64,000 nt of DNA from a virus, in the IMG/VR virus record IMGVR_UViG_3300031669_000007, positions 1 to 64,000 of that record, one strand, 5' to 3'. Positions 5,436-55,814 of this stretch are shown here, piece by piece (the first letter of the stretch is position 1; every line of letters begins with the position of its first letter). A program made the translations under genes and the position numbers. The notes under the pieces were generated by a model. It was not told the DNA's origin, searched no databases, and saw only the letters and a program-made list of their open reading frames with translations.

Positions 5436-6071
5436 TTAAATCAGTGCGTGAATTTGTTTTGCCTTCTCTAAAACAATCTTAGAGTATTCTCCTGAACTTG
5501 CTGTGCCGTTGTAACAAGCTAACGCTCGAGACATATTGTGATGCTTTTGTCGTAAACATTCTCTTAAAATACTTGCTGCAAGAGTTGAATTGGTGTATGG
5601 ATCATATATGTTTTTAGTTGAGATTTCATCTTCTCTCAACAATAGAAAAACTCTACCTACATGTGGCTTTGTCATAATTTGAAAGAACCCAAGTTCTCCC
5701 TGCGAGCCCAATGCATATTGTTCAAAGTTAGATTCGTGTTTAGCAACTGCCAACTCAATCTCAATTGGTATTCCATACTTCCATGAATTTTCCATAATTG
5801 CATCAGCTAATCTATTTGCAACACTGTCGCTGATATTTGGTCTAACACTTTTGATATAATGAACAATCCGTTGTTGTCTTTTGGCCATTGGCGAAAAAGA
5901 TAACGATCTTGATGGTTGGATCTGCGATGCTTCTGCTGGTGGTATTGCTGCTTTGAGCAATACATTTATTGATACTCCAAATATCAATAAAAATGAAACT
6001 ATTACTACCTTAATCATTGGCACGAAACCTATCTTTGGAACGTAAACCAGTCGTCTTGGTATTTTAGTCAT
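5436..6071 (-). CDS. Lytic transglycosylase (SLT domain) with N-terminal membrane anchor
   Basis: AVAKHESNF (catalytic E-S), GFFQI, ALACYNG; hydrophobic N-terminus; TAAATA box at 6101-6106. Confidence 0.85.
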   Translation of the reverse strand: MTKIPRRLVYVPKIGFVPMIKVVIVSFLLIFGVSINVLLKAAIPPAEASQIQPSRSLSFSPMAKRQQRIVHYIKSVRPNISDSVANRLADAIMENSWKYGIPIEIELAVAKHESNFEQYALGSQGELGFFQIMTKPHVGRVFLLLREDEISTKNIYDPYTNSTLAASILRECLRQKHHNMSRALACYNGTASSGEYSKIVLEKAKQIHALI

Positions 6072-16489: not shown

Positions 16490-16960
16490 TTACTCTGCTT
16501 TTTTCAACTGTTTCAGTTTTCTAATTTCAATCTTTCGAGGTTTATGTTCCTCTGGGACTTCAACTTCAAGGTCGATGATAAGCATTCCGTCTTCGCATTT
16601 TGCTCCTCTTACGACTACATGTTCTGCAAGATTAAATGTGCGCTCAAATGAACGAGCACTTATTCCCTGAAATACATAGTCTTGTTTTTCGCGCTCTTGT
16701 TGTTTGCCTTTAACCGTTAGAACATTTCTTTCTAATGTAATGTCGAGTTCGGAATCTTTAAATCCCGCAACTGCTATATGAATAGCATAGCACATATCGT
16801 TCAATTTTACAATATCATACGGTGGATAATTAACCGAAACCGATGCAGCGGATGCACGGTCTAAGTCGGCGAACATTCGGTCGAATCCGATTGAAGAGCG
16901 ATGTAAGTTTGCAACAAGTGAGGGTAGATCGAGGGTTGTGAGACGTGTAGATTGATTCAT
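16490..16960 (-). CDS. Small heat-shock protein (Hsp20/IbpA family)
   Basis: IGFDRMF, NYPPYDI, AVAGF, GISARSFERTF, DGMLII. Confidence 0.95.
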   Translation of the reverse strand: MNQSTRLTTLDLPSLVANLHRSSIGFDRMFADLDRASAASVSVNYPPYDIVKLNDMCYAIHIAVAGFKDSELDITLERNVLTVKGKQQEREKQDYVFQGISARSFERTFNLAEHVVVRGAKCEDGMLIIDLEVEVPEEHKPRKIEIRKLKQLKKAE

Positions 16961-17027: not shown

Positions 17028-17035
17028 TATTTATA
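17028..17035 (-). promoter_or_regulatory. Late promoter box
   Basis: TATAAATA just upstream of the sHSP leader. Confidence 0.65.
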
Positions 17036-17393: not shown

Positions 17394-19226
17394 TTATTTT
17401 GGTTGATCAAGATACCTTGCAACTTGCTCCTGTTCAGTGTGGTTTAAATCATCGATGTCGTATTCGCCTGTGCTAATCTTTTCAACAAGCAAGCGAATAT
17501 ATTCTTTGTCATATGCGTAAGCTGAAGTGACATCTTTATCAATCTCGATCCACCTTGTGCCTACCCACTTGAACAGCTTGCTTGGCATATAATCAACTCT
17601 TAGAAATAAATCTCCGTTACCTGGATTGGGCGGGAAAATTACACCAAAGCTTGCGTTTCCTCCTTTTGGCATATCTGCTGTTACTACAAATACATTTTCT
17701 TCTGCCTTATCGACATCGCTATTGCTCTCCATTTGAGTATGTTCTTTAACTTTATCAATTGAATTAGATTCTTCGATTTGCTCAAGCAACGAACTTTTTT
17801 CGTGTAGTTCTGTTTGAAGTGCCGAATATAAGTCTTTTATTGTTACTTCTTTATTATATATTTCCTGAGTCAACGATAATTCTTTATCAGTTAGATTTTT
17901 CTTAGCAATGACGATCTCATTATTTTTTTCTTCTATTATTTTTTGTAAGTCTGTTAGGTCTAACAGAGCAGAATTAATTTGAGTATCCTTGCTATCTATT
18001 TCAGCTTGCAATGCTGTTAGCATCTCTTCATACAAAGAACTTTGTTCTTCGCTTGCCTTCTTTGCCTTTTCTTCTAACTCAGATTTCTCATCAAGTAACG
18101 AGTCGTAGCTATCTATTAGCGTTTTAAGCTGTCCCCTTAATGTGCTATCAGCAGTTACTAAATCAGAACACTCTTCCTCAAGTGAGAATATAACAGGAAC
18201 CAAGTTGTTAAAATCGTCTGTTACTTTTTTCAATGACGCAGTAAGCTCTGTTATTTCCTCCTCAATCTGCGAAGTTTCTGCTTGTCGCTGCTGTAACTCA
18301 TCGTTTCTCTTTCTTTCCTCATCAAGCAATGCTGCTAGTCTATCGCTCTCTGATGTATCAACAACAATTTTCTCTGCGACTATTTCTTTAGGAGGTAAGT
18401 CAACTATTTGTTTTGATGCTATTCTTTTTCGTTCTTCTTTAATCCAATCCATCGAAGTTGTTGCCGCAAGCAATAGCATAATTGCAAGCGGATCAAACAC
18501 AACAACGATAATAATAATTACAAGTCTGACTGCTGCTTCAAGAGTATTTTGGTCGGGGTTTGCTCCATAAATAACTGCTGCAATATACTGTATTGGCCCA
18601 ACATCTGCAATCGCAGTTCTTAATTTGCTCGCAATTGGTGCTTTCTCTGATTGCAATTTAACGATATCATTTTGCGCCCTATCTATGTCGTCGGATAACC
18701 TTGCTCTATCTTTTGATTGACTGCGACGAATGTATAAAGCTCTCTCTGCTGCGCTCTGAGTATATGTTCGCCCATCTCTAAGTTTTATATCTCTGCTTGT
18801 GCCCTGAGATATTTCGTTATTTACTACATCATCTAATTGTTTTATAAGATTTCTATCGCTTGCAATGTTATCTCTGTCGTTCTGAATTTTCTCATCAAAC
18901 ACAGAAACCTGAGCTGCAATATCGCCTGACGGAACAGCCTGGTCTAAGTGAGCCTTGCTCAAGAAACCAAACGACCCCATACTGGTAATTCCCATCAATA
19001 TGATAACGGCCGGAACCAAGTAAAGTTTTAGTCTTAGCGGTGACTTATCCCAGTTATAATGCAACCATGCCGTCGTAACAATCTTCGAGAATTCTAACGT
19101 GGCTCCCATTATTATGATAGGAAGTGGCATAGCTGCAAAGATTGCGACCAGTCCCAATACGCTATAATAAGCACTTACAGCAGACAAAGATAGTGCGGCA
19201 AACAAAGTAATCAGTGATACAAACAT
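17394..19226 (-). CDS. Membrane-anchored coiled-coil protein
   Basis: N-terminal TM helices, further TM near aa 235-258, long coiled coil, C-terminal FPPNPGNGDLFLRVD module. Confidence 0.7.
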   Translation of the reverse strand: MFVSLITLFAALSLSAVSAYYSVLGLVAIFAAMPLPIIIMGATLEFSKIVTTAWLHYNWDKSPLRLKLYLVPAVIILMGITSMGSFGFLSKAHLDQAVPSGDIAAQVSVFDEKIQNDRDNIASDRNLIKQLDDVVNNEISQGTSRDIKLRDGRTYTQSAAERALYIRRSQSKDRARLSDDIDRAQNDIVKLQSEKAPIASKLRTAIADVGPIQYIAAVIYGANPDQNTLEAAVRLVIIIIVVVFDPLAIMLLLAATTSMDWIKEERKRIASKQIVDLPPKEIVAEKIVVDTSESDRLAALLDEERKRNDELQQRQAETSQIEEEITELTASLKKVTDDFNNLVPVIFSLEEECSDLVTADSTLRGQLKTLIDSYDSLLDEKSELEEKAKKASEEQSSLYEEMLTALQAEIDSKDTQINSALLDLTDLQKIIEEKNNEIVIAKKNLTDKELSLTQEIYNKEVTIKDLYSALQTELHEKSSLLEQIEESNSIDKVKEHTQMESNSDVDKAEENVFVVTADMPKGGNASFGVIFPPNPGNGDLFLRVDYMPSKLFKWVGTRWIEIDKDVTSAYAYDKEYIRLLVEKISTGEYDIDDLNHTEQEQVARYLDQPK

Positions 19227-19572: not shown

Positions 19573-19580
19573 ACAAGTAT

Positions 19581-34302: not shown

Positions 34303-34875
34303 TTACTCAATAATTGCTGTATAATCTTCTTTAATGTATGATGAACCTGTCTTAAACATTGGCCAGTCAGAAAAATCGCCAGTATTTTCTATCATAATAC
34401 GCCAATCCGTAGATCCACCACTACTGTAAAAATTATTTAATGTATCAATATCAAATGGTTCATTCTGCCCAGCTTTGATATTATGCCATTGTTTCTTAAA
34501 TCTTGATAATCCCTTAACTACTTCTTGCATATCAGGAGAATGTATCTTACCCAAAAATAATGGGTTTTTCGCCAATCTTGATTTATAAAACCAGAGCATT
34601 TTAGAAAATATCTTTTGTCCTCTATATTCTTCTTTAACCCAAATATCATCGACTATGTTCTTATCATTCAATGAAGTATATGCTATTAGTTGATTCCTGT
34701 ACCATAAAGAATAATAGTCATTATATTGTCTAACTTGATATTGTTCAATATCTGCGATATATTTCCCGTGTGTTAGCCACAACTCAGAGTGTTCTTCCCC
34801 AAACTTTTTTGCAAGGTTAGAATAATCTGGACCTCGCCAAGGCATTTCGCTTATAAATTCTATGGATCTCATCAT
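34303..34875 (-). CDS. GNAT-like acetyltransferase with CTS-like N-terminus
   Basis: IWVKEEYRGQKIFSKML motif A; MRSIEFISE; TAAATA at 34877-34882. Confidence 0.65.
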   Translation of the reverse strand: MMRSIEFISEMPWRGPDYSNLAKKFGEEHSELWLTHGKYIADIEQYQVRQYNDYYSLWYRNQLIAYTSLNDKNIVDDIWVKEEYRGQKIFSKMLWFYKSRLAKNPLFLGKIHSPDMQEVVKGLSRFKKQWHNIKAGQNEPFDIDTLNNFYSSGGSTDWRIMIENTGDFSDWPMFKTGSSYIKEDYTAIIE

Positions 34876-35633: not shown

Positions 35634-36056
35634 TTATTGGCGATTTTTTGCTGCGCTTTTTGCCATATTCGAAACTGTTTCTTCCGAATCTTGTTCCGGC
35701 GACGTGTGTTCTTCACCGCTATCTTCGCCGTCGCCAGTATGCTCTTCATCGGAATCTTCATCCGAATCAGATGCAAGCTCGATTGTATCTTTATTGAAGG
35801 TTTTGATTAGGTCTTTTACTGCGTCATTGTTTTCGAATGCGTCAACAAGTGCATTATAATCGAATGTAGTATCGCCAGCGTTCTGAACCAATTGAATCAA
35901 GCTATCGGTGCGTAGTTTTGCAGATAGTTCTTTATCTTCAGAACGCTTCTTTAAGAACATAAGAACAGGCATAAGATTTGAAGATAGTGTATCTTCGCCG
36001 CCACCTAATTGATCTTCTGCTGATGCATCTTCAAATACTATTTCTCTTATTTTCAT
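35634..36056 (-). CDS. Putative prohead core/internal protein
   Basis: MKIREIVFE start; acidic tail. Confidence 0.55.
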   Translation of the reverse strand: MKIREIVFEDASAEDQLGGGEDTLSSNLMPVLMFLKKRSEDKELSAKLRTDSLIQLVQNAGDTTFDYNALVDAFENNDAVKDLIKTFNKDTIELASDSDEDSDEEHTGDGEDSGEEHTSPEQDSEETVSNMAKSAAKNRQ

Positions 36057-39152: not shown

Positions 39153-40412
39153 CTACTTTTTAATGACCTTACCGTCCTGTACGTATAGGAATCGTCTGAT
39201 CCATTCTGCGGTTGATTCTAGTATTTCTCTCTCATCCCTAGTGTAGAAGTGATCTGATGACATCATATGTACAATGACGTCGTCTATATCTTTAATCATT
39301 GGCACATCTTCCTCATCGTTCATATATATTATGGCTGCTTCTTTAAGCTTATCTACACCTGGGTTAATTGCATCTAATATCAGTTCATACTCTCTTTTTG
39401 CGTCGTCGTTATAATATAAATAACCAGGTGCATTTTCATAATCTACGTCACCGTTTTCGTCGACGAACCCTTCTTCCTGAAGCCAAGTATAATAATACTC
39501 GTCGTTCACTTCCCAGTCCGTCAGTCTATCGTCTGCTGACTCTGATGCATATTCACTGATCTGGTCAATGATCCTATTTAATACATTATCATATGCAAAT
39601 ATAATCATCTTAGAAAAATTAGGGTCAAACTGACGTAAGTTATTAATTAAATTACCAAAGCGTTTAGTTAATATATCAATTGGATCAACTGGCTCATCCT
39701 CTTCGTTCATAAACTGACCTGATGCAGCATGAACCTGATATTTTTCACCGTCGTATGCTGGCTGCTTAGGCAGAAGAATAAACATTGGTCCCTGGCGATT
39801 ATATCTGTCAAACATGTTATTATTCGTCGCTGCCGTGCACCAGGTTGTGCCCTGACCATAGTAGCAGGCTGCATCAGTATCTTCTGGCTGTACAATTCTG
39901 ACCGCTGCGTTACTATATATCTCTTTTGATTTGCCCTTAGGTATTGCTGTCTGAGCAGCGGTCTTTAGCTTATCTACTAATTCTGGTGTATGGGTAATCG
40001 TATATAGATCCTTAAAATTAATTCTATTTATGTCTCTGAGTTCGACCGGCAATATCTTTCTAAGTTTCATTTGTGCGAAGGTTTTGAGCCAGTCTGCGCC
40101 CTTTGATAATATGTCCTCTAGTGCCACGCCGCCGTTAGCATAAATTTTAGCCAGCCATGGTGTGTATTCTTTGTGTGTGGTAGGGTCTGCATTCTTCAAG
40201 AATTCAAGTATAAGATTTGAAATATGAGAAATAGTCTGCTGGTCGAGTTCTATTCCCTTCATGTCTGGTGATAGTAATAAAGATATCTGCCTATCTAAGG
40301 CAGGAGCAGGCATATTCCTTTCGTCTTTAAGCATGGCATTGACCAGTTTGCGCCCAAAGACCTGTATTGTCTTAGCTTGATTATATTCTACTAGAAATTC
40401 ATTGGCTCTCAT
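39153..40412 (-). CDS. CTS-tagged protein with PcfJ-like domain
   Basis: MRANEFLVE; ADPT..K.Y..W; AACYYGQGTTWCTAA; KYQ. Confidence 0.6.
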   Translation of the reverse strand: MRANEFLVEYNQAKTIQVFGRKLVNAMLKDERNMPAPALDRQISLLLSPDMKGIELDQQTISHISNLILEFLKNADPTTHKEYTPWLAKIYANGGVALEDILSKGADWLKTFAQMKLRKILPVELRDINRINFKDLYTITHTPELVDKLKTAAQTAIPKGKSKEIYSNAAVRIVQPEDTDAACYYGQGTTWCTAATNNNMFDRYNRQGPMFILLPKQPAYDGEKYQVHAASGQFMNEEDEPVDPIDILTKRFGNLINNLRQFDPNFSKMIIFAYDNVLNRIIDQISEYASESADDRLTDWEVNDEYYYTWLQEEGFVDENGDVDYENAPGYLYYNDDAKREYELILDAINPGVDKLKEAAIIYMNDEEDVPMIKDIDDVIVHMMSSDHFYTRDEREILESTAEWIRRFLYVQDGKVIKK

Positions 40413-40413
40413 C

Positions 40414-41064
40414 TTATGCAACCCATGGGTCGACGATCACCGGGAAGTCTGATCCTCTAGACATTACGTTGTCGTTATGTAAATCCCAATACCAGTTCTT
40501 CTTGTCGGATATATTGAATAAATCAAGTATAGTAGACAATAATAAAGCGGTCTTCTCACGTCCAAGATTCTTGGTTAATTGATTAAACCATTTTTCTCCA
40601 TCGTGCTCTGCCTCTGTGCCCAGTTCGTGAAACACATTTGATGCATTTAGTCTATGAGCTGACCAAGAAATATTTACGCCTGCTCTTGCGACTGCTAACC
40701 CAATGACATCATTTTCATTGAGTTTCTCCTGACGAATCTGTAGATATGGGTTACCATTGAACATAAAGCTCTCAAACCCATAGAACTTAGGTAGAAAAGG
40801 ATTGTTTTGTCTATCCATGCAATACTTGGCCCAGAAGAAGAACATTTTTTGCCCTTTAGTAAATTGCGGTTTTCCCGACGTCGTTAGACCTTTCCCAAAC
40901 TGAGTTCCAAATATCTTTAAGACTTGACCCGTGCTTGGTTCTAAGAATGCCATCTGATCGACTCCCTGACCCAACTTCTTATATCCTTTTGCCCTAAGAA
41001 TCTTAGTAATGTCTACGTGATTATCGCTATATTCATCTATTTGTTCTATTTCGATTATTTTCAT
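40414..41064 (-). CDS. Ser/Thr protein kinase-like protein
   Basis: LGQGV loop, VLK, LPKFY, QEKL, DLHNDNVM, IVDP. Confidence 0.78.
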   Translation of the reverse strand: MKIIEIEQIDEYSDNHVDITKILRAKGYKKLGQGVDQMAFLEPSTGQVLKIFGTQFGKGLTTSGKPQFTKGQKMFFFWAKYCMDRQNNPFLPKFYGFESFMFNGNPYLQIRQEKLNENDVIGLAVARAGVNISWSAHRLNASNVFHELGTEAEHDGEKWFNQLTKNLGREKTALLLSTILDLFNISDKKNWYWDLHNDNVMSRGSDFPVIVDPWVA

Positions 41065-41660
41065 CTTATTCTCTTTGTAGCAACTAGTTCCATATTTTTA
41101 GCATCTAATAGTTCGGGACTGTATTCTCCACCGTAATCCCAGGTATCTGTGTCTTTTGAATGAGTATATTCTGGATCGCGCATATCTACATTGACTGGCT
41201 TCCCGTTTAACCATCCGTGTATCTCAACATTTTTATGATACTTCTGTAGTTGTTTCCACACTGCGTGGCCACCAGGCGATTGGCTTGATGCAACTAATGT
41301 CTTCCCTAATTTAGTAATTAAAAAGGCATAGAAATTATGAGCCTTGAGTGTATTATTTTTATTAATAGCGTATAGACTTATATTCGTTAATATATTATTA
41401 TCTTCGTTTGCCCCAACTACTAAATCAACTTTTCCGTCTGGCGACACAGCATAATATCCATGCCAATCCCCGCCCTGAGGATCTTTCTCAAAATATACTT
41501 TGTGACCGTCTGGCATCTTAGCAATCTGAACACCGCCAATCTTTAGAAGTTGCTTTTCGTTAGATGGATCTTCCGGGTGCCATTTCCCCTTACGTTTAGT
41601 AATATAATCAAGCTCTTCAACCTCGTCAATTGTAGTCTGAATTACTTCATTGATTTTCAT
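41061..41660 (-). CDS. CTS-tagged GNAT-like protein
   Basis: MKINEVI; FYAFL...LVASSQSPGGHAVWKQL. Confidence 0.45.
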   Translation of the reverse strand: MKINEVIQTTIDEVEELDYITKRKGKWHPEDPSNEKQLLKIGGVQIAKMPDGHKVYFEKDPQGGDWHGYYAVSPDGKVDLVVGANEDNNILTNISLYAINKNNTLKAHNFYAFLITKLGKTLVASSQSPGGHAVWKQLQKYHKNVEIHGWLNGKPVNVDMRDPEYTHSKDTDTWDYGGEYSPELLDAKNMELVATKRIR

Positions 41661-43153
41661 AAATCTAATTCCCAATAGTTTCCGCTGTCATTATGATCAA
41701 CGGACTTAAATCCTGCTTTCTTAAACATATCTTTTGAACCCACATTAGTCCATTCCGTGTATGCCTTAACCGTGTAATAACCATGTGCTTTTGATTGCTC
41801 AACTATGTATTTAAGCAATTCTGAGCCAAACCCTTGTCCCGTAGGTGTTGCGTCTATGCGATTAATATATGCAATTCCAGAACTATTATCTAAATCTAAC
41901 GTGGCTGATCCGCGTTTTGCTTGTGTTTCGCCTATTCTATCAATCCAGTTCTTAGCTGAGTTTGTTATGTGTGCATTTAAGAATACTCTCAGATTCCAGT
42001 CGCCTTTCTCTTCTATGTCTAATCGTTCTGTTTCTGACGATTCTTTTATTGATATCGACTTAATTTTACGAACTATTTCCCAGGTGTTTAACCCCTCCGA
42101 TATTGTTAATTTAGATTTAAATTCAAATTCAGGAAAATACTTACTGATAGATTTGGCAAATCTATCATATAATTTATTTCGACTTGGTAAATCTATCTTA
42201 CTTGAAAAGTAAATAGCTCCTATAGATTTATTTTCTCTGTCAAAATCAACGAGAATCAATGATAATATTTCTTTAATAGTTGCAAAAATTCTAAATGCAT
42301 CCCCTGTATTTTCTATATCCTGACTCAAATCCGACTTTTCTTCTCCTTTAATCAATGAAAATAAAACATTGATTACATTCTCATTCCCTCTAAATTCTTT
42401 TGCATATTTGACGGTAACAAGATAAGCTAATCCCGAATCAGTCTTAAATTTATAAGATTTTTTCGGCATTAAAGAATCTGAGTTATTGCTGTATTCGGGG
42501 GAATACTTAAACGGATACGGAGCATCGGCTAACTCGGTTAGCATTTTATTATCTTCTAATACAGTAGATGACTCTGTAATCTTAAATTCTGATTTATACC
42601 ACAAGTAGATGTCTGCAGAAGAACAACGCTTGTCGAACTCTCTGCGTAAGATATAATAAATTTGCTGTTTATCTGCTCTCGATAAATCATCCCAGTTACC
42701 AATGTCGCGACGCAATTGCCTTAATAAGGAATTAGACGATAGCTTTAGATAATCTTCTAATCTCCAAAAGAATGTAACATCGTCGTTGTGAGATGATTTT
42801 GACTTAGTCTTAGATGCCAATACACCCAAGTATCTATTAATTTGGAATAACGGAATGCTCACGCCGATATGAGTTTTAATATCCTTCTTAAATGTGTCTT
42901 GGTTATTTAATACAGCAAGCAAATTGCCCAGGTCAGAGCCTGAATAATGCAGTTGATCATAGGTATTATATTTTAGTGTATCTCTTGCGTAATCTGCTGT
43001 ATAATTTGGTTTGTAATGTCTTATTACTTCTAACATCATAAACATCAAAAAGACTATCTGTGCTATTTCGTCAGCAGACATGCCTTTAATGTCCTTTACT
43101 CCATAAAACATGCGAGCTTCGACGAGAGAATCAATGAAAGGTAGTAGTGACAT
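41657..43153 (-). CDS. Multidomain putative internal virion protein with C-terminal GNAT
   Basis: RIDATPTGQGFGSELL and N..S..MFKKAGF; Glu-rich linkers. Confidence 0.65.
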   Translation of the reverse strand: MSLLPFIDSLVEARMFYGVKDIKGMSADEIAQIVFLMFMMLEVIRHYKPNYTADYARDTLKYNTYDQLHYSGSDLGNLLAVLNNQDTFKKDIKTHIGVSIPLFQINRYLGVLASKTKSKSSHNDDVTFFWRLEDYLKLSSNSLLRQLRRDIGNWDDLSRADKQQIYYILRREFDKRCSSADIYLWYKSEFKITESSTVLEDNKMLTELADAPYPFKYSPEYSNNSDSLMPKKSYKFKTDSGLAYLVTVKYAKEFRGNENVINVLFSLIKGEEKSDLSQDIENTGDAFRIFATIKEILSLILVDFDRENKSIGAIYFSSKIDLPSRNKLYDRFAKSISKYFPEFEFKSKLTISEGLNTWEIVRKIKSISIKESSETERLDIEEKGDWNLRVFLNAHITNSAKNWIDRIGETQAKRGSATLDLDNSSGIAYINRIDATPTGQGFGSELLKYIVEQSKAHGYYTVKAYTEWTNVGSKDMFKKAGFKSVDHNDSGNYWELDL

Positions 43154-43161
43154 CTATATCC

Positions 43162-43716
43162 TTATGGCATGTTGGGCCAAGTTAAGTTATTCTTGGTAAT
43201 ATTTTGTTTTGCTTCTAGTATCTGCAAATTCGCGAGACAGTGTAATCCTTGTACGAGCGGCGAGTTAAGTGGCACAATGTGATCTACGTGATAAGACACA
43301 CCTGTTAATTCAGTCAATGCTTTTGCTTGAGAATATAATGCCAAAATCTGATCTTTCTCGGCGATCGCCCATTGAGGTGTCGCCTGTAGCTTAGTTGCTC
43401 TTCTATTTGCGTTTTTTGCGTTGATCTTATCTGGATTGTTCTTTCTCCATTTTCTATTTGATTCTCTATGAAATTCTGGATTATTGCGCCTGAACTTATT
43501 CACTGATTCTTTGCTTCCTTCCGGATCTGCTATATATCTTTTATGAGCCGACTTCGTTTTATACAATGCAACCTTGTCTAAGTTGGCAGATTTCCATGCA
43601 TCGTTTTCAGTATTAATACAGATTTTGCATCTTGTCGTTAAGCCGCACTTATAGCCTTTATTTTTATAGAAAGAATCAAGCGATTTACTTTCGTTACATT
43701 TTGTGCATGTTTTCAT
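43162..43716 (-). CDS. HNH homing endonuclease
   Basis: CTKC/CKIC Zn finger; HVDHIVPL..GLHC..NLQIL...N..K. Confidence 0.88.
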   Translation of the reverse strand: MKTCTKCNESKSLDSFYKNKGYKCGLTTRCKICINTENDAWKSANLDKVALYKTKSAHKRYIADPEGSKESVNKFRRNNPEFHRESNRKWRKNNPDKINAKNANRRATKLQATPQWAIAEKDQILALYSQAKALTELTGVSYHVDHIVPLNSPLVQGLHCLANLQILEAKQNITKNNLTWPNMP

Positions 43717-43772
43717 AATAAGTATTTATCTTAGTGATGGCTCCAGTCTGGAGCAACATACGGTGTCTCTGG

Positions 43773-44549
43773 TCATGTAATAGGAGTGCCGCCAACGCGA
43801 AGTGTTTCTAATAGATCAGATCTAACTATAATACACGGTCCGCCTATCCACAATTCTTTATCTCGCATTCCACCGCCAGCAAATTCTTCTAAGTCATATA
43901 ATTGAAACCCGGTATTTTGTGGAGCCATTGCTTCTTCAATTTCTGGTAAAAAATCCTTAGGCTCAATTGGTTTAATTTTATTATCTTTAATTAAGTAGTT
44001 CAGTTCTCTCGCGAAGAAATCAGATTGAACTTCTTTAACCATTGAATTATAGTCCTGAGATAATCTCAGGTCTTCAAGAAATTCATTTAGGTCTGGAAAA
44101 TCAAGACCACTATAGACAAACGGTAGATCAATTCGTGTTTCCCATATATCAATGGCAGGACACACGGCAACCTTAACTCCTCTTGCTGGAAATACGGCAT
44201 AGGTTGCAGCCGACCACGGTGCTCCATGAGCATAATCAGATGCTCTGTCAAATTCAGTTGAACAAATTATGCTTCTACTTCTTTTTGGCCATCCATTGAA
44301 ATAAGGAGAATTATCCATTAATTCTGTGTAATAGTTAGATGTATTTTGTGATTGTCTAACGCCTGTGCTTGGATAAATCTTTAATATCTCCTGATTATGA
44401 TTGTTAAATCCGCGCCAGATAGGTTCTCTAATTAGTTCATCTACTACGGGGCAGAATTGCCTTAGTAATGTCTCTACCTTGTCGGTGTTGATTACTTCTT
44501 TTTCGTAAGGTTTAACCTCTGCTTCAGATATTATCTCATTGATTTTCAA
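43773..44549 (-). CDS. CTS-tagged ADP-ribosyltransferase-like protein 1
   Basis: MKINEIISE; IWRG...SIICST...A..Y...KELWI. Confidence 0.5.
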   Translation of the reverse strand: MKINEIISEAEVKPYEKEVINTDKVETLLRQFCPVVDELIREPIWRGFNNHNQEILKIYPSTGVRQSQNTSNYYTELMDNSPYFNGWPKRSRSIICSTEFDRASDYAHGAPWSAATYAVFPARGVKVAVCPAIDIWETRIDLPFVYSGLDFPDLNEFLEDLRLSQDYNSMVKEVQSDFFARELNYLIKDNKIKPIEPKDFLPEIEEAMAPQNTGFQLYDLEEFAGGGMRDKELWIGGPCIIVRSDLLETLRVGGTPIT

Positions 44550-45307
44550 AATGGGTCATCCTCTATTGAATCATTGTCATCGTCGGCAGTGTCGTTTGTA
44601 TATCCTACCGTGCTACCCGAGAAAGGATTATATCCGGCTGCAATAGAACTGCCATTGTCTTGAAGAGGATCAGTTAATACTAATTGTATGCCAGTTGGTC
44701 CAAGCCGAATCATTATATTCCCTGCGTGTACATCAGTGCTAAACGCTGAATTAGAGTTATATACTTCTTGAATTAACTGTATAGCTTGAATTAATTTTTC
44801 ATCACTGAAAATCTCGTACATATTAATGCTTGACTCAATTCCTTTTTCAATGTCACTTGAAATATTCCACAGTAATAATTCTCCTAGACGATGGTAGGCC
44901 AGAGCTTTCTCAGTGTAAATCTTTTCGGCTATTATCTCAACTAAGTTTTCTATCTCAGAGTTTGCTTCACTAATTGTCATTAGTTTTTCCATATTATAAG
45001 CTGGTTTAACTAATCCATCGCTATATCTTTTAAAGACAACTTCATAGACTCTTGGGAAATATGGGTTGCTTTTCATAAAAGGAGAACATGCTTTGATATA
45101 TTGATAATATGCATCGTTCTTTAGATTAGATGGCATTCTTATTTTCTTACGATACATGTGAGTATCAAGAGGATCTGGTGTCCCACGAGCATACGCCCCA
45201 CCATTTGTAGTGTCGATTTTTTGTCTTTGCCCCATCTTTTCAATGTTGTATGGTTTGCTTATCGGACGCTCGACATGTATTGGTTCTATTATCTCATTGA
45301 TTTTCAT
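44546..45307 (-). CDS. CTS-tagged protein kinase-like protein
   Basis: MKINEIIE; GGAYA, NPYFPRVY, MEKL, DVHAGNIM, LTDP. Confidence 0.72.
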   Translation of the reverse strand: MKINEIIEPIHVERPISKPYNIEKMGQRQKIDTTNGGAYARGTPDPLDTHMYRKKIRMPSNLKNDAYYQYIKACSPFMKSNPYFPRVYEVVFKRYSDGLVKPAYNMEKLMTISEANSEIENLVEIIAEKIYTEKALAYHRLGELLLWNISSDIEKGIESSINMYEIFSDEKLIQAIQLIQEVYNSNSAFSTDVHAGNIMIRLGPTGIQLVLTDPLQDNGSSIAAGYNPFSGSTVGYTNDTADDDNDSIEDDPF

Positions 45308-46432
45308 TTATGTATTCCTTGCGAAATTAGCCTGGCTAAATTGGGTGCGATTAACCAATTTAATTGGTCCTCCCTCGTCGCTAGATACATAGCCCTCACC
45401 GCCACGTGCGCCTGCAATGTGTGCGATAACTGTTCCTTCATGTGAATCTAATTGATGAAGTATATCTAATTTTAGTCCGGTAATTAAATCGAATATATTA
45501 AATACTGCCTGTAATCCTGCTGCGTTTTGTTCTGAATAGGCAATTACCTTACCGACCATTGCCTTAGATATCTTTGGGTTAGATTGAACCCAAGAACCGA
45601 ACTTAGCATATAGATTGGTTAAATCTCTTGTCTTAACCTGTGCATTGACGTATGTGTATAATAGATCAGGCAATGCTGCCATCTTTTGTTCACGCAATAC
45701 ATCTTCGTCAAGGAACGCATCTACCACTTTGGCATTCTTCTTAACGTATTGTGTGATCTGTTTGGCTTTTACTTTGTCTGCTTGAAGAGTAGCTTCGTTC
45801 TTAATCTCCGGGCCTAAGATGCATAATGGGCCATTGAGGTTTAGTCCTGCTGTATTCTTTAATGGAACACCGTCTGCACCCACGTCTGAATAAAAGGTGT
45901 GAACAGCCATCCCAGCTTTTGATTGAGCTATGTGATGTCCGAGTTCAGAGTTCTTATCTACTTCATACGTTACCGTATTAGGCGTAAAGATGAATCGCTT
46001 AGTTGTTTCTTTTAGTTCGCCAGGGAACCACATAATATCGCCAAACACAAAACCACGATAATTAGAAGGCACCGAAGCCTGAACGATAGGCCAGATTGCG
46101 ACGATTTTAGCGAGATAATCTTCATCTCCACCTTTGCTGCGCTTTTGCTTAACAAATTCTTTAGCTGATTTATATAGTCCATTGTATCCTTTCGCGCCAA
46201 ATCCCGCTTTGTCAGTGAAGATGAATTCTCCATCTTCATTACGACCGAATACACAACTTGGTTTTCCATCCCATTTGATTGACAAAATATCTTTACTCTT
46301 GCTTAGACTTAATAAGTTATTAACTGCTCTGAGAGCACCAGCAGATTTTTCCCAAAAAACTAAGTCCTCGGCGTGCTGAATGCGAGCACCCTCATTGAGA
46401 ACTGATTCTACTATTATTTCATTGATTTTCAT
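45308..46432 (-). CDS. CTS-tagged RNA-ligase-like nucleotidyltransferase
   Basis: MKINEIIVESVLNE; KWDG (motif I), GDI, GEGYV (IV), IKLV (V). Confidence 0.6.
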   Translation of the reverse strand: MKINEIIVESVLNEGARIQHAEDLVFWEKSAGALRAVNNLLSLSKSKDILSIKWDGKPSCVFGRNEDGEFIFTDKAGFGAKGYNGLYKSAKEFVKQKRSKGGDEDYLAKIVAIWPIVQASVPSNYRGFVFGDIMWFPGELKETTKRFIFTPNTVTYEVDKNSELGHHIAQSKAGMAVHTFYSDVGADGVPLKNTAGLNLNGPLCILGPEIKNEATLQADKVKAKQITQYVKKNAKVVDAFLDEDVLREQKMAALPDLLYTYVNAQVKTRDLTNLYAKFGSWVQSNPKISKAMVGKVIAYSEQNAAGLQAVFNIFDLITGLKLDILHQLDSHEGTVIAHIAGARGGEGYVSSDEGGPIKLVNRTQFSQANFARNT

Positions 46433-47174
46433 TTTTTAATCGTTCCTTTAGTAATGGCAACAATGTTTTTCTAAATTCATTCTCATTCATATGCCCTTTA
46501 ACAGTATTCACTATTCTAAGACAAAAGACTAAATTTTCTGCGGCGGCGGTTTTCTCAGTAGGCCAGTTATAAAAGAATGCTTCATTGACCGAAATCTTAT
46601 GATCGATTGTCCTCTTCAGCGGGTCATTTGGGTTGACTTTTTCTAATAAATTGTCATTGAATGCAATGTCGGTATAATAGCATGTGTTAGGTATTAGGTT
46701 AATTTTCTTAATTTTGTCAACCTGTTTTTTAGTCATTGACTCTACTTCTTTTCTATAATTATTAAATTCCTCATTGATTTTTAATTTTTTATAAGGTATT
46801 AAGTTTTGTTTCTTGAACCCTTCTCCGGGTCGTTGGCCATTATTAATAACGCCATATCGATTAAGCATTGATGCCTGCATTTTACTTTGTCTCTTATCAT
46901 TGGTGTTTTTACCGCTAATCCCTTCATAAACACCGCCCTTCTTCAAAATTTCTGTGATCAAATTTCGCAATTTCCCACCAAAAACTTTAGTGCTTTCTTT
47001 CTCAATAACATATTTACAACATTCAGAAACCGAATATGTCTCTAAGTAATACTTAGCTATATAATCATTGAGAACATCCTTTAATCGTAATACTTCCTTC
47101 TGATAATCAGAACAATTTCTAAAATGAGCCGTATTTCCCTTAGGTATCTCTAATCCACAAACACATTCACACAT
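46419..47174 (-). CDS. HNH-like homing endonuclease
   Basis: RYGV, CYYT, TIDHKIS..NLV....N..K; TAAATA at 47193-47198. Confidence 0.7.
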   Translation of the reverse strand: MCECVCGLEIPKGNTAHFRNCSDYQKEVLRLKDVLNDYIAKYYLETYSVSECCKYVIEKESTKVFGGKLRNLITEILKKGGVYEGISGKNTNDKRQSKMQASMLNRYGVINNGQRPGEGFKKQNLIPYKKLKINEEFNNYRKEVESMTKKQVDKIKKINLIPNTCYYTDIAFNDNLLEKVNPNDPLKRTIDHKISVNEAFFYNWPTEKTAAAENLVFCLRIVNTVKGHMNENEFRKTLLPLLKERLKNENQ

Positions 47175-47442
47175 AATAGTTCTCCTTACTATTATTTATG
47201 CTGGATAGCGTCTTATCTAATAGAAGTTCGTTAATCTTCATAACTTCCATCCTTTCTGAGATAGGTACAGTTAATAATATTTGTTCAACTTTCTCATAAT
47301 ACTGATATGCGTCCATAATTCTTGGAATGGCAATACCAACACCGAGAGATATAATACCGGCAGCGGCCAATTTAGCAACTTTTGCTTTAATACTTTCTTC
47401 AAGTATTTGTGATTCTGTTAATATAAATTCGCTTGATTTCAT
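47167..47442 (-). CDS. CTS-tagged small protein with hydrophobic helix
   Basis: MKSSEFILTESQILEES then LAAAGIISLGVGIAI. Confidence 0.55.
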   Translation of the reverse strand: MKSSEFILTESQILEESIKAKVAKLAAAGIISLGVGIAIPRIMDAYQYYEKVEQILLTVPISERMEVMKINELLLDKTLSSINNSKENYYV

Positions 47443-48197
47443 AATGTCCATCCCTCATTCTGATAATAGTGTTTAGCCAAAACAAGCCAATTTGAATTAA
47501 CCACTATTGCTTTGTCTGCTATTAGCATTATTTCGTGTGATGATCTAATGCCACCTATTAAATCTTTATTAAACTGATAATCACCGTCGATCATAAAATC
47601 ATTGACATAATTATAATTATCGAATACTTGTTTCATCTTTTCTTTTAAAGAAAAAGAACTAGCGTGTTCATCTCCGTCGCCAGCTGCATCAGTGAAGTGT
47701 TCCATACTTTCATACATATCGACATAATTTCTGGACCAGCAGAAGCTAAAATTACCCATTGGTATTACCACGACGGTATCACCGTATCCAGATGCCTTAG
47801 CTTCCTTACCAAAACAAAATAACGATTGGCGTCTAATTCTGATGTTTGTTCTTTCTTCAAACCAATCATCTATTGCTGCGCTAACATTCTTGGGTGTGTC
47901 TTTTGGGTTACGGTCTTTTCTGATGTTCACAGTGTTAAACGGATGCTCTTCTGGTATATCCATTGCCTGATGGTCAGGAATACCCACACCTCTGAATAAC
48001 GGGTAATTAAACAAAGCATTCTCGATGCCGCCGACCTGAGTCAGGTATGGTTGTGATGTTCTCGTCAGAAGAGCCGCTAACTCTGACAGCGACGATTTTA
48101 TTTTATTTACTTCATTTGCATCTGACCATTCGATATCATTCTCTATTTTTGCTGTGTCAGAATCAAGGTCTTCTAAGATTATGTCTTTAATTTTCAT
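47439..48197 (-). CDS. CTS-tagged ART-like protein 2
   Basis: MKIKDIILE; LFRG...RNPKDT...SLFC...A..YG...HEIML. Confidence 0.5.
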   Translation of the reverse strand: MKIKDIILEDLDSDTAKIENDIEWSDANEVNKIKSSLSELAALLTRTSQPYLTQVGGIENALFNYPLFRGVGIPDHQAMDIPEEHPFNTVNIRKDRNPKDTPKNVSAAIDDWFEERTNIRIRRQSLFCFGKEAKASGYGDTVVVIPMGNFSFCWSRNYVDMYESMEHFTDAAGDGDEHASSFSLKEKMKQVFDNYNYVNDFMIDGDYQFNKDLIGGIRSSHEIMLIADKAIVVNSNWLVLAKHYYQNEGWTL

Positions 48198-48862
48198 TCT
48201 GGCTCCACCAATTTCTTTAAGAATTTCTGTCGTATTACTAATGCCTTTTTACAGGAGAGCATTATTTCTGTCCCGGAAAATATCGCACCTCGAATATTGG
48301 TATCAAATCGATAATCTCCTGAATCCATAAATTCGTTTATTCTAGCTTTGTAAAACTGTTCTGCCTCATGCACAGACATGCCAGCACCTCCGTTGGGCGG
48401 CTTGTAGTTAAATTTGCCTAATGCAACAAATAAGTCTCTATACTGGGCAGAATATGCATAGTGGTATTCTCCCATTGGTATTACAATTAATGCACCGGTT
48501 GCCATTCCTGAATAAGAAATAGCGATATCAAATCGACCAGTGCAATGCAACGATGTCTGTCTAAATCTGACACCTACACGCTCTTGAAACCAGTCGTCAA
48601 TGAGAATCTGAACTCCTTCAGGGGTATCTGTCGGAATCCGATTTTGATTTACTATAACAGTTTTGGCGTGAGAACCAGGCGGAAATTCTATTTTCTCTAT
48701 TCCTCGATACATTGGATAGTCGATTATTGCAGCGTCGAATCCACCTATCTCTTGAAGATATGGTTGACATTGTTCTTCTGCGAACATTCTTATGCCAGCA
48801 AACTCTTTAAGAAGCTCTTTTTTAGTGTCACTGTCTTCAGTAATTATCTCTTGTATTTTCAC
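48194..48862 (-). CDS. CTS-tagged ART-like protein 3
   Basis: MKIQEIITE; MYRG...RIPTDT...SLHCT...A..Y...TEIML; clear paralogue of 47439. Confidence 0.5.
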   Translation of the reverse strand: MKIQEIITEDSDTKKELLKEFAGIRMFAEEQCQPYLQEIGGFDAAIIDYPMYRGIEKIEFPPGSHAKTVIVNQNRIPTDTPEGVQILIDDWFQERVGVRFRQTSLHCTGRFDIAISYSGMATGALIVIPMGEYHYAYSAQYRDLFVALGKFNYKPPNGGAGMSVHEAEQFYKARINEFMDSGDYRFDTNIRGAIFSGTEIMLSCKKALVIRQKFLKKLVEPE

Positions 48863-49620
48863 TTTGGGTTCACCATCTGAGATAACGATCTATACCAGGA
48901 TGGAGAACCTACTTGAATAGATTCTGGCAAGTTAATTAATCCCTTTTTGGCATCTTCTCTTGCCTGTGCTAGTTTTGCATCTCTAGCTGGGTCAGATGCC
49001 AATGCTTTCATTATTGTTTTAATGCTGGCCAGGTCTGCTGCTGTTGCCTTAGGATTAAGCAGTATCTTAGCCACAGAATCTTTGTCGTCTGCTACCACCA
49101 CGCCTGTCTCTCTGTTAACTAGCTTGCCCTCAAATGGGCTGAACTTTAAGCCTAATGATTTGGCAATGCTTGAATATAATATGAATAGCTGACCGCCCTT
49201 AAAGTCTGGATCATCGTATTGTCCTGACGGACCATGCTGATGGAACGGTGCGACTTTAGCTGCATTCGGAATGACCATAATATCTAGCTGAACAAACGTG
49301 CCATCTGGCACTGGCATACGAACGTGGACATTACGTCCCGACAATGCGACCTGAAACCCCTCTTTCTCAATGTATTGCTTTAATGCTAATTTAGTATATT
49401 TCTCGTCTGGTGTATTAAATAACTGTGCTAATTTACCGGCATCAACAAATACATCCATGTCACCTGACTCAACCTTATATCCAGCCGATCCGATATCTGG
49501 AATAATATTAATTCCAAATGGCATTATCTTCTGAATATCTTTAATTATTCCTGGGACATATTCTCTTTTAATTGGAGATACGTCAGGAAATACATTTCCG
49601 CCTTCATTTAATTGATGCAT
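48859..49620 (-). CDS. Pol-beta superfamily nucleotidyltransferase
   Basis: LNEGG; GSAG...SGDMDV; VQLDIM. Confidence 0.75.
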   Translation of the reverse strand: MHQLNEGGNVFPDVSPIKREYVPGIIKDIQKIMPFGINIIPDIGSAGYKVESGDMDVFVDAGKLAQLFNTPDEKYTKLALKQYIEKEGFQVALSGRNVHVRMPVPDGTFVQLDIMVIPNAAKVAPFHQHGPSGQYDDPDFKGGQLFILYSSIAKSLGLKFSPFEGKLVNRETGVVVADDKDSVAKILLNPKATAADLASIKTIMKALASDPARDAKLAQAREDAKKGLINLPESIQVGSPSWYRSLSQMVNPK

Positions 49621-49621
49621 A

Positions 49622-50605
49622 TTAATTCCTTTTAGCTTTACCGCCATATGTTGGAGCTAACACCTGGTTCAACGTTGGCTTGTCCTTAGGCAGTGGATCA
49701 TTGACTGTTTTGTGCCATTCTTTGCCGGTTCTCGGCGTATCTAAGCTATTTTTCTTCTTTTTATTTTTTGCTTCTTCTAACTTCTCTTTCTTTAAGCGTC
49801 TGACAGCCATCTCCTTAACTGTGTATTCATTGATCAGCTTTTTAGCTTTGTTAATTGATTCGGTCATTTCTAGTTCCTCGTTATTTGTGCTGCGATTACC
49901 GACTATGCGGTTATACAGATCTGGCCGTACTCCGACTTTATCAGTGTGCTGTTTTGTTGCCTTAGCATAATAGTTGCCGGCCAAGTTCTTAGATATTTCA
50001 TTGACTTGTGATTCTTCGGTTGGCTGCGGTTCTTGCTTAGGCCGTCTATTAGCTCTAGCTTGCATTCTTCTTTGATAGCTAGGAGCCATTTTGTAAGGAG
50101 TTTGTGGAGATGGTGGAGCAGGAATAAACGTTCCTGTCTGATTGTCGGCCATTTTCTCTAATGCCTGAACTTGTGTAGGATCGACAATTTTTTGATTTAA
50201 TTCATTGACCCAACCTGCATTAGTTTTATAATATTTTCCCTTACTTCTAGGGTCAATGATCATAAACTTTTCCCCTGGCCTTAGAGCAGGCTCCTTCTGA
50301 GGCGTCTGAGACGTCTGACCTTGAGTAGGCATATTTGATGCTCTATTTGGGTTTGGTTTTACTTGCATCTGAGCTTGGCTTCTGGCTTGCGTAACTTCTT
50401 GGCGTTTTTGTTGAAAGTTTTTTTCTGCTTGATGACTTAAACTATGCTCTAAGTCGTGGGCGCCTAACCCCCTTGCCAGACCAGAATAGGCATTAGCGTT
50501 TCTATCAATGTGGCTACTAGCTGCGGCAGCGGCGTTAGCTGCACCCTTCTTAATAGCGTCCCATATTCCTTCGTCTAACTCACTGCTAAATTCATTGATC
50601 TTCAT
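49622..50605 (-). CDS. CTS-tagged low-complexity protein
   Basis: MKINEFSSELDEG; internal VNE, MTE, INE, LEE. Confidence 0.55.
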   Translation of the reverse strand: MKINEFSSELDEGIWDAIKKGAANAAAAASSHIDRNANAYSGLARGLGAHDLEHSLSHQAEKNFQQKRQEVTQARSQAQMQVKPNPNRASNMPTQGQTSQTPQKEPALRPGEKFMIIDPRSKGKYYKTNAGWVNELNQKIVDPTQVQALEKMADNQTGTFIPAPPSPQTPYKMAPSYQRRMQARANRRPKQEPQPTEESQVNEISKNLAGNYYAKATKQHTDKVGVRPDLYNRIVGNRSTNNEELEMTESINKAKKLINEYTVKEMAVRRLKKEKLEEAKNKKKKNSLDTPRTGKEWHKTVNDPLPKDKPTLNQVLAPTYGGKAKRN

Positions 50606-55293: not shown

Positions 55294-55758
55294 TTACCTC
55301 TTTTCAGAATCTGGCATATCGAGCCAAGTTCTATTTCCTTTTGATATATTTATCTTACCCTCTAATATCTGTAAATTGGATAGACAATGGAAACCCTGAA
55401 CAATTTTTGAGTTAAGTGGAACGATATGATCTACATGATAATCTATATTGGTAATTATAGATTTTGTGTGTGCAACAATATATAATTCGGTTATACATAA
55501 TTTCTCTAACCAATTATCTGACCATGCAGGTGTGGCCTTTATTTTCTTGGCTCTTCGTTTAGCATTTATCTCTTTGACTTTTTCTGGGTTAGCAGTGCGC
55601 CATTTCTTATTGTATTCTGCATTCTTTTCTGGATTGGCATCTCTCCATTTTTTGATCTGTTCTGTTCCAGATTCTCTAAACTTTTTTTGATATTGCCTAA
55701 CTTTATCCGCATTTTCTTTACGCCATATCAGGCGGTGATTTTCTTTTTTAGTGTCCAT
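55294..55758 (-). CDS. HNH homing endonuclease, paralogue of 43162
   Basis: ATPAW, YHVDHIVPLNS..VQGFHCLSNLQILE; TAAATA at 55763-55768. Confidence 0.88.
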   Translation of the reverse strand: MDTKKENHRLIWRKENADKVRQYQKKFRESGTEQIKKWRDANPEKNAEYNKKWRTANPEKVKEINAKRRAKKIKATPAWSDNWLEKLCITELYIVAHTKSIITNIDYHVDHIVPLNSKIVQGFHCLSNLQILEGKINISKGNRTWLDMPDSEKR

Positions 55759-55814
55759 TATGTATTTATGCAAGTTTTTCTTCCGCACCTGATTCCGAAT
55801 TGCTAAATATTCGT

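Follow-up and report, generated by a model that had tools for sequence, protein, structure and literature searches.

Capsid-targeted cargo that includes an ADP-ribosyltransferase (ART) is known from bacteriophage T4. The T4 protein Alt is loaded into the prohead core, trimmed by the protease gp21 and ejected with the DNA; the T4 capsid-targeting sequence (CTS) is formed by the first 10 residues, and gp21 cuts after L/I-x-E (PMC9026906). The T4 internal proteins have been described as defence inhibitors (PMC3012670), and in the T4 record IPIII and IPII start with MKTYQEFIAE, IPI with MKTFKEF and Alt with MELITE. In giant phages of the phiKZ and SPN3US types many head-internal proteins are cut after Glu by a gp21-related protease (PMC9026906), and polyvalent proteins are a further group in which effector domains (ART, GNAT, kinases) are delivered with the DNA (PMC7824862). 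We describe here three open reading frames (ORFs), termed A, B1 and B2, in a window of 64,000 nucleotides (positions 1 to 64,000 of IMG/VR virus record IMGVR_UViG_3300031669_000007). The window is the opening part of a viral contig of 92,630 bases, which represents about 26% of a genome. We propose that the three ORFs belong to a large, undescribed phage family of about 200–260 residues with an ART-like core, carried as capsid cargo in T4-related giant phages. We give this whole chain of claims an even chance of being right, and grade its parts where their evidence is discussed.

A, B1 and B2 all start with M-K-I-x-[ED]-I-I-x-E, and the family is proposed to work as Alt does, whose MELITE likewise has an I-x-E near the N-terminus. 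However, Alt is 682 residues long and contains, by eye, YRS, STS and E-x-E motifs, whereas the family members have 200–260 residues and a single Glu, and are present as arrays of up to 11 copies. The likeness to IPI, IPII and IPIII is that a tag of about ten residues, ending in (L/I)-x-E, stands on otherwise unrelated proteins, although the tag here is one residue shorter than the T4 CTS. The T4 internal proteins are also small and have no recognised enzyme fold, whereas A, B1 and B2 are acidic (isoelectric points (pI) 4.7–5.7) and predicted to be enzyme-like.

Three related reading frames of an expanded family

The initial annotation had described the three ORFs (Table 1) as paralogues with five motifs in common, and a regular-expression scan bears out the motifs, each of which is found in the same order in A, B1 and B2. 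The motif P-x-[WFY]-R-G lies at residues 43–47 of A (PIWRG), 66–70 of B1 (PLFRG) and 50–54 of B2 (PMYRG), R-x-[PS]-x-[DN]-T at 65–70, 96–101 and 75–80 respectively, and R-x-x-S-x-x-C at 90–96, 122–128 and 101–107, with A-x-x-Y right behind it (103–106, 135–138 and 114–117) and E-[IL]-[MW] close to the C-terminus (232–234, 222–224 and 199–201). A contains one additional ELM (76–78) and one additional A-x-x-Y, and B1 one additional A-x-x-Y.

B1 and B2 are clear paralogues by sequence, with 31% identity over 242 columns (BLASTP E 1e-41), and A is a remote homologue of both. The best BLASTP matches of A to B2 (E 0.06) and B1 (E 1.4) are not significant, so profile methods are needed for A. Alignment by hhalign of six B sequences against 24 A sequences gives a probability of 96.2% (E 2.1e-9, 117 columns), and a hidden Markov model (HMM) of 117 B-family sequences matches A at E 2.3e-10 over residues 1–122, the next contig ORF scoring E 0.55. 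Other ORFs with the same tag score E >2 with this HMM, so that the N-terminal tag alone does not make the match of A. The PHROG assignments cross in the same way, A matching phrog_12810 strongly and phrog_11975 weakly, and B1 the reverse. Similarity between A and B is detectable in the N-terminal half, beyond which they have only a final Glu-strand-strand-helix pattern in common. The family HMM picked out no further member when applied to the remaining tagged ORFs on the contig. One of these, the ORF at 34303–34872, contains a PWRG at residues 11–14 that was considered as a sign of membership and rejected because the ORF has no match to the family HMM.

The family is large, and its description as an expanded, paralogous one holds well beyond the three copies seen here, with 279 family ORFs counted across 64 related loci, none longer than 21 kb, and the source contig (65 sources in total), 1 to 11 per locus; these counts are inflated because several loci are near-duplicates (L001 and L031 are both Atu_ph07, and L027–L030 are alike). 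A has 24 relatives in a library of 5.8 billion proteins, and the B profile matches 4526 cluster representatives in a library of 1.84 billion at E≤0.001, 2319 at 1e-10 and 50 at 1e-30. The region has no megablast match in 50,697 phage records. The cultured phages in which tblastn detects the family are limited to Atu_ph07 (Agrobacterium), SCTP-2 (Salicola) and RsoM2USA (Ralstonia), and one uncultured record has it as well. Foldseek searches against viral models (BFVD) return 27 significant matches, none with an informative functional name; most are uncharacterised or unnamed, one is called putative chorismate-mutase-like and one, from Atu_ph07, a Zeta-toxin-domain protein. Library searches on capsid targeting, Atu_ph07, ARTs and jumbo-phage paralogues found no description of the family; the supplement of PMC7824862, outside these searches, might class such proteins as ART.

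Members also occur in fused forms. In the Atu_ph07 array (39484–50592), gp63 is a GNAT-like domain plus B, gp54 is B plus A, and gp53 (778 residues) is A followed by a P-loop/zeta-toxin-like kinase and further sequence, corresponding to full-length phrog_12810. A multi-domain form, P0037 (2645 residues), contains four B domains and one A domain, and hydrophobic-x-E-S sequences stand at four of its five N-terminal domain boundaries, where single-domain members end their tag; these joints may be protease joints.

The N-terminal tag and probable packaging in related phages

The initial annotation also proposed that the proteins are injected, and this idea fares well as far as the virion is concerned. 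We consider packaging of the family in virions likely, given a tag resembling the T4 CTS, the presence of 11 of 11 Atu_ph07 homologues in a virion proteome, and a gp21-type protease (Peptidase_S77 above the cut-off) in all five of the large related records.

The tag ends in I-S-E, I-L-E and I-T-E in A, B1 and B2, each of which reads as an (L/I)-x-E site. The minus strand has twelve ORFs between 34303 and 50605 that open with M-[KR]-x-x-E-[IFV]-[ILV]-x-E, and nine of them lie outside the ART-like family: two kinase-like, one ligase-like with DUF6267, and six without assigned function. Of the 1332 candidate starts on the contig, 10 fit a strict form of the pattern, and all ten are real ORF starts, on the minus strand at 34.3–50.6 kb. 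Among A-branch sequences 23 of 24 match the tag pattern (E9 in 22), the first seven residues of the A model having a predicted local distance difference test score (pLDDT) below 50, and in the B branch (n=117) position 2 is K/R in 92, position 5 is E/D in 81 and position 6 is I/F/L/V in 93. Many relatives start with MITFKQFLxE, MRFKQFLxE or MKLTFKEFLAE, and of the 115 family ORFs that the HMM aligns up to the N-terminus, 111 have hydrophobic-x-E within the first 10 residues. The codons of the tag are A-rich, and synonymous codons differ between its copies, which argues that the peptide is what is conserved. To judge from these patterns the tag looks like a capsid address that marks the cargo set of the phage. 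In two related giant phages, ORFs that match the ART-PolyVal HMM carry the local tag as well (MKFESFLFE at L077:1030-1860, minus strand, and MKWQDLSE at L078:1474-1986, plus strand).

The packaging evidence comes from relatives, above all from Atu_ph07, in which the order of primase/helicase, a few small genes and array is like that of the window. Its 11 family ORFs are gp53–gp63, of the types A, B, B+A, GNAT+B and A+kinase, and each starts with M[RK]WxQLxE. All 11 are listed in the virion table obtained by electrospray-ionisation tandem mass spectrometry (ESI-MS/MS), with 3–31 unique peptides and 12–46% coverage, in comparison with 20 peptides for the portal and 10 for the major capsid protein (PMC6102473, Table S5). 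The ORFs were assigned to gp numbers by counting from coding sequence (CDS) 70 (primase/helicase), and the calculated masses of 17 of 17 table-listed mapped CDS agree with the table to within 0.01 kDa. The table also includes gp64 and gp65, the latter with 10 unique peptides (PMC6102473, Table S5), and both have relatives in the array of the window (Table 1); BLASTP finds no similarity of the ORF at 49622–50605 to gp67, nor of the DUF6267 ORF to gp66. A tagged, ART-PolyVal-like ORF of Atu_ph07 (170 residues) has a mass of 20.00 kDa, equal to that in the gp381 row of Table S5, and is a candidate for gp381. Where the Atu_ph07 paper discusses the gp53–gp63 cluster, its virion proteins are mostly left unassigned (PMC6102473). 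For RsoM2USA, the account in PMC8504454 covers only the 10 strongest gel bands of the virion, with no family member among them, and we regard these data as uninformative on packaging.

The position of the arrays is also informative in three further relatives (L013, L062 and L066). Their tagged arrays, which include A and B members as well as a tagged P-loop kinase, have a gp4-like head-closure gene on one side and the large terminase gene on the other. This resembles T4, in which ipI is about 3 kb from gene 4.

In the mechanism that we propose, the nine-residue M-K-x-x-E-I-I-x-E would attach the protein to the prohead scaffolding core, as the T4 CTS does, and a gp21-type prohead protease would cut behind the I-x-E glutamate. 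The mature, acidic protein of about 25–29 kDa would remain in the head, as mass spectrometry of virions shows for the Atu_ph07 homologues and as analogy suggests here, and would go into the cell with the DNA in the manner of T4 Alt and the internal proteins. There it would modify a host molecule using nicotinamide adenine dinucleotide (NAD+), a step to which fold and conservation point.

Several observations count against packaging as set out here. The source contig contains no prohead protease and no head gene, so packaging in this phage is argued by analogy, and cleavage of the tag in any of these phages is a prediction from sequence. The arrays of the window and of Atu_ph07 lie just downstream of primase/helicase genes, outside any head module. 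The late-promoter motif TATAAATA occurs at 12 sites in the window against 6.15 ± 2.37 expected (3 of 100 shuffles reach 12), and none of the 12 is at 43–51 kb, so that late transcription of the array gains no support. The Atu_ph07 virions were purified with polyethylene glycol (PEG), and the table includes a few replication proteins, such as ribonucleotide reductase (RNR) and a RecA-like protein, with 1–3 peptides (PMC6102473), which points to some carry-over.

These points invite the explanation that the proteins are not packaged here but serve as enzymes of early host takeover, produced together with those of replication. Their shared N-terminus would then have a role in starting translation, or would have arisen as a side effect of recombination among adjacent gene starts. 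In favour of such enzymes, the array directly follows the primase and DnaB genes in a single block of closely spaced minus-strand genes, the tag codons are A-rich and, again, the contig lacks a head gene and no TATAAATA lies near the array. Yet the Atu_ph07 array is equally close to the primase gene and all its members are in the virion proteome, the tag is kept as a peptide despite differing codons, distant phages use other letters with the same hydrophobic-x-E end, the tag resembles the T4 CTS, and three other phages have their arrays among head and tail genes. We consider this explanation very improbable.

Fold and candidate active site

The claim that A, B1 and B2 are ARTs stands in part. 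An ART-superfamily fold is moderately supported by structural neighbours and by the placement of a conserved Arg-Gly and Glu, but Foldseek searches of the A and B1 models against the PDB give nothing at E≤0.001. Kinship with T4 Alt, ModA and ModB or with classical R-S-E toxins is not supported, since hhalign against Alt stays below 1%, Pfam and NCBIfam give no match, and there is no [QE]-x-E. We regard an ART-superfamily fold, in a new family with an R-[ST]-E-like residue set, as probable on the models, and ADP-ribosyl transfer proper as a possibility that falls slightly short of even chances.

AlphaFold models were built from separate alignments (A, pLDDT 87.3; B1, pLDDT 92.8), and each was aligned to 48,161 PDB representatives. 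The structural neighbours are mainly BC2332, Arr, diphtheria-type (DT) toxins and DarT, with BC2332 in one comparison lying 3 Z units above the next row, at a sequence identity of 8–9%, and the sub-threshold Foldseek rows for model A include OspC3, CopC and PARPs. BC2332-like proteins form SCOP family d.166.1.6 within the ADP-ribosylation superfamily (PMC3000352). BC2332 itself (PDB 2aua) is bacterial and is described as having no assigned function, with a site matched to that of DT-type toxins (PMC3024214), although the family has Arg on strand 1 where the DT type has His. Alt shows no detectable sequence relation to the family, and the family's neighbours of the BC2332, Arr and DT types are a further difference from it.

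ART triad residues are placed on strands 1, 2 and 5, with R/H-G-(S/T) on strand 1, S-x-S or Y-x-x on strand 2 and Glu at the front edge of strand 5 (PMC7955679). Conservation was counted in 117 B-family sequences (mean column identity 19%) and 24 A-family sequences. The strand-1 feature is present as [YFW]-R-G on the first core strand, with R69 in 115 and G70 in all 117 B sequences and both residues in 24 of 24 A sequences. At the end of strand 125–129 of the B1 model, with a helix next, stand [TS]129 (92/117) and G130 (99/117); the A family has [ST]97 (23/24) and [TS]98 (21/24), and these residues are candidates for the S-T-S position. The Glu feature is found in the sequence and the predicted secondary structure, E222 (117/117) preceding the penultimate strand (223–226) and E232 being present in 24 of 24 A sequences. 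Other strongly conserved B positions are Y138 (107) and M224 (114), and R96 and R122 (117 each) and D160 are invariant in addition to the triad, which is unusual for ARTs. In the A family R65, S67, N69, R90, S93 and W234 are likewise present in 24 of 24 sequences, as are R46, G47 and E232 as strand-1 and Glu residues. The proposed active site would, if the fold is right, be made up of the strand-1 Arg-Gly, a Ser/Thr where strand 2 ends and the invariant Glu that precedes strand 5. A [QE]-x-E motif is not seen before strand 5; two residues ahead of E222 the B family has G in 46, N in 15, R in 14, K in 13, E in 6 and Q in 5 of 117, that is E or Q in 11.

Other results weigh against the ART assignment. 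Pfam and NCBIfam contain no match for A, B1, B2 or the 117 family members, and profile searches of PDB sequences gave nothing relevant. Comparison by hhalign of both family alignments with Alt, the one of the three T4 enzymes compared, gives probabilities of 0.3% and 0.8%, Alt being a single sequence, which limits sensitivity. The proposed fit of R, S/T and E to an NAD+ pocket is read from the order of secondary-structure elements and not from superposition. PF03496 (ADPrib_exo_Tox) matches nothing in the source contig, and the PF18760 (ART-PolyVal) HMM does not match the family in five records that include this contig. A and B share DUF2441 as their nearest named Atlas cluster (0.83–0.84, as a language-model neighbour), and DUF2441 belongs to the Pfam ART clan (PMC7955679), but the DUF2441 HMM in five related records does not match the family and gives one sub-threshold match outside it; we treat this kinship as a language-model lead only.

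The negative results of Foldseek, the PDB profile search, Pfam and NCBIfam, and the cyclic-nucleotide-binding domains that make up about half of the listed structural rows of model A, would fit a new head-internal protein. Its likeness to ARTs would then come from an alpha/beta arrangement that is widespread, and its conserved R, D and E would be unconnected with NAD+. Set against this are the lead of BC2332 over the next row, the DUF2441 neighbour of both branches, and the weak BFVD matches beyond the family, which are to a PolyVal ART (E 0.065) and to an Atu_ph07 ORF that also matches the ART-PolyVal HMM. This explanation seems to us unlikely.

A stronger competitor, though still doubtful, accepts the packaged cargo and disputes its chemistry. 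The proteins might hydrolyse NAD+, transfer a 2'-phosphate or modify DNA, RNA or a small molecule in some other nucleotide-dependent reaction, or, as a variant, be non-catalytic binders or inhibitors of a host defence protein, like T4 IPI*. The neighbours include the rifampicin-modifying Arr, the DNA- and RNA-directed DarT/Tpt1, the non-catalytic AvrPphF ORF2 and the uncharacterised BC2332; the conserved R69, R96, R122 and D160 exceed an ART triad and would suit a phosphate-rich substrate; and the missing [QE]-x-E and the defence role described for the T4 internal proteins (PMC3012670) point the same way. However, the Arg-Gly and the Glu are held, in sequences with so little overall identity, at ART strand positions, and recognised ART-PolyVal proteins of the same phage group share the tag. 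The contig also encodes, outside the window, a nicotinamide phosphoribosyltransferase (contig 77557-78954, L075:13557-14954; PF04095 E 1e-48 plus NAMPT_N) and a fusion of a nicotinamide mononucleotide (NMN)-adenylyltransferase-like domain with Nudix (contig 80001-81056, L075:16001-17056). These two ORFs form a nicotinamide-to-NAD+ salvage pair that fits heavy use of NAD+ circumstantially, without proving it.

If the ART-like reading is retained, the two branches may not act alike. In the models A and B diverge throughout the C-terminal half and in a helical insert that separates strands 4 and 5, which makes different substrates plausible.

Neighbouring genes and significance

Nearly all genes of the window are on the minus strand, and the region contains genes for nucleotide metabolism and DNA replication (ribonucleotide reductase, DnaB-type helicase, primase and exonucleases). 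Endonuclease VII/HNH-like ORFs (phrog_1035) lie at 43162–43716, 46419–47174 and 55294–55788; the first two fall within the tagged array and have the appearance of inserted mobile endonuclease genes. The motif TATAAATA stands on the minus strand ahead of an Hsp20-like gene at 16490–16960 (phrog_432 E 9e-42; motif at 17028) and of a 610-residue ORF at 17394–19226 with a weak match to virion structural proteins (motif at 19578). A 211-residue ORF at 5436–6071 has endolysin/transglycosylase-like matches (phrog_669 E 2.5e-12), and beyond the window a helicase-like ORF (ResIII/DEAD; contig 68373-69386, L075:4373-5386) runs into Hint/intein splicing domains and is probably an intein-containing helicase gene.

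Table 1. Positions in the window of the three ORFs, their motifs and the genes around them.
Feature	Position	Strand	Description
Protein A	43773-44549	minus	258 aa, TTG start; A branch; phrog_12810 N-terminal domain, E 2.3e-25; 24 homologues
Protein B1	47439-48197	minus	252 aa, ATG start; B branch; phrog_11975 E 7.7e-29
Protein B2	48194-48862	minus	222 aa, GTG start; 4-base overlap with B1; phrog_11975 E 1.3e-24
Tag of A, MKINEIISE	44523-44549	minus	I-x-E at residues 7-9; proposed capsid-targeting propeptide
Tag of B1, MKIKDIILE	48171-48197	minus	I-L-E at residues 7-9
Tag of B2, (GTG)KIQEIITE	48836-48862	minus	I-T-E at residues 7-9
PIWRG of A (R46-G47)	44409-44423	minus	predicted strand 44-48; proposed ART strand-1 Arg-Gly
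PLFRG of B1 (R69-G70)	47988-48002	minus	predicted strand 68-71
PMYRG of B2	48701-48715	minus	aligned to B1
E232-L-W of A	43848-43856	minus	start of predicted strand 232-235; proposed catalytic Glu
E222-I-M of B1	47526-47534	minus	directly before predicted strand 223-226; proposed catalytic Glu
E199-I-M of B2	48260-48268	minus	regular-expression scan and alignment
Tagged neighbour MKINEIIEP	44546-45307	minus	protein-kinase-like, phrog_15752 E 8.4e-7; family HMM E >1, non-member
Tagged neighbour MKINEIIVE	45308-46432	minus	DUF6267, PF19782 E 9.3e-37 from residue 18; K-x-D-G, ligase-like by eye
Tagged small ORF MKSSEFILTE	47167-47442	minus	91 aa, hydrophobic stretch
Tagged neighbour MKINEFSSE	49622-50605	minus	327 aa, basic (pI 9.8), no family
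Tagged ORF	34303-34872	minus	tag pattern
Tagged ORF	35634-36056	minus	tag pattern
Tagged ORF	39153-40412	minus	tag pattern
Tagged ORF	41061-41660	minus	tag pattern
Tagged kinase-like ORF	40414-41064	minus	phrog_15752 E 6.2e-7
Untagged ORF	48859-49647	minus	262 aa; homologue of Atu_ph07 gp65, BLASTP E 3e-5
ORF with C-terminal GNAT	41657-43153	minus	498 aa; PF00583 E 2.2e-5; residues 2-184 similar to Atu_ph07 gp64, BLASTP E 3e-10

Compared with the other described systems, the family resembles polyvalent proteins in its fusions to GNAT and P-loop kinase domains, in the multi-domain form P0037 and in the local tag carried by ART-PolyVal ORFs. It differs in that most members are single-domain proteins with a tag of their own, and ART-PolyVal itself, which has Y-H-G-S on strand 1 in L078, is described by an HMM that misses the family in the five records searched. 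The phiKZ- and SPN3US-type phages are a separate group in which cleavage occurs at S/A-x-E, and the portions of PMC9026906 considered here describe no comparable shared N-terminal tag for them. New relative to T4 are a large family that has no database model, no sequence kinship to Alt and an expansion into arrays, and the presence of a T4-like address tag on kinases and a ligase-like enzyme in giant phages of the Atu_ph07 type.

We put forward tentatively, as a claim with rather less than even chances, that the tag is a readable address code and that the ART-like family is a major class of co-injected effectors in T4-related giant phages. If so, a head cargo of 12 proteins could be listed from sequence (three ART-like, two kinase-like, one ligase-like with DUF6267 and six others). 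Should the main reading hold, the T4 rule of capsid targeting would extend to another phage group, and proteins could be loaded into large capsids by means of a short natural tag. The proposal also offers a hypothesis at the level of function for eleven 'hypothetical' Atu_ph07 virion proteins and for thousands of metagenomic proteins outside the family databases. Capsids would carry arrays of up to 11 diverged ART-like enzymes that are poised to act before phage gene expression. On the bolder, address-code reading, the effectors would reach host defence or gene expression within seconds of infection, possibly by acting on nucleic acids and not on proteins. Targets would differ between the A and B branches, and the head protease would cut the multi-domain forms at their hydrophobic-x-E-S joints. 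T4 Alt would, if the main reading holds, be no oddity but one case of a widespread strategy in giant T4-related phages, and the targets of these enzymes would reveal which host systems need to be disabled first.

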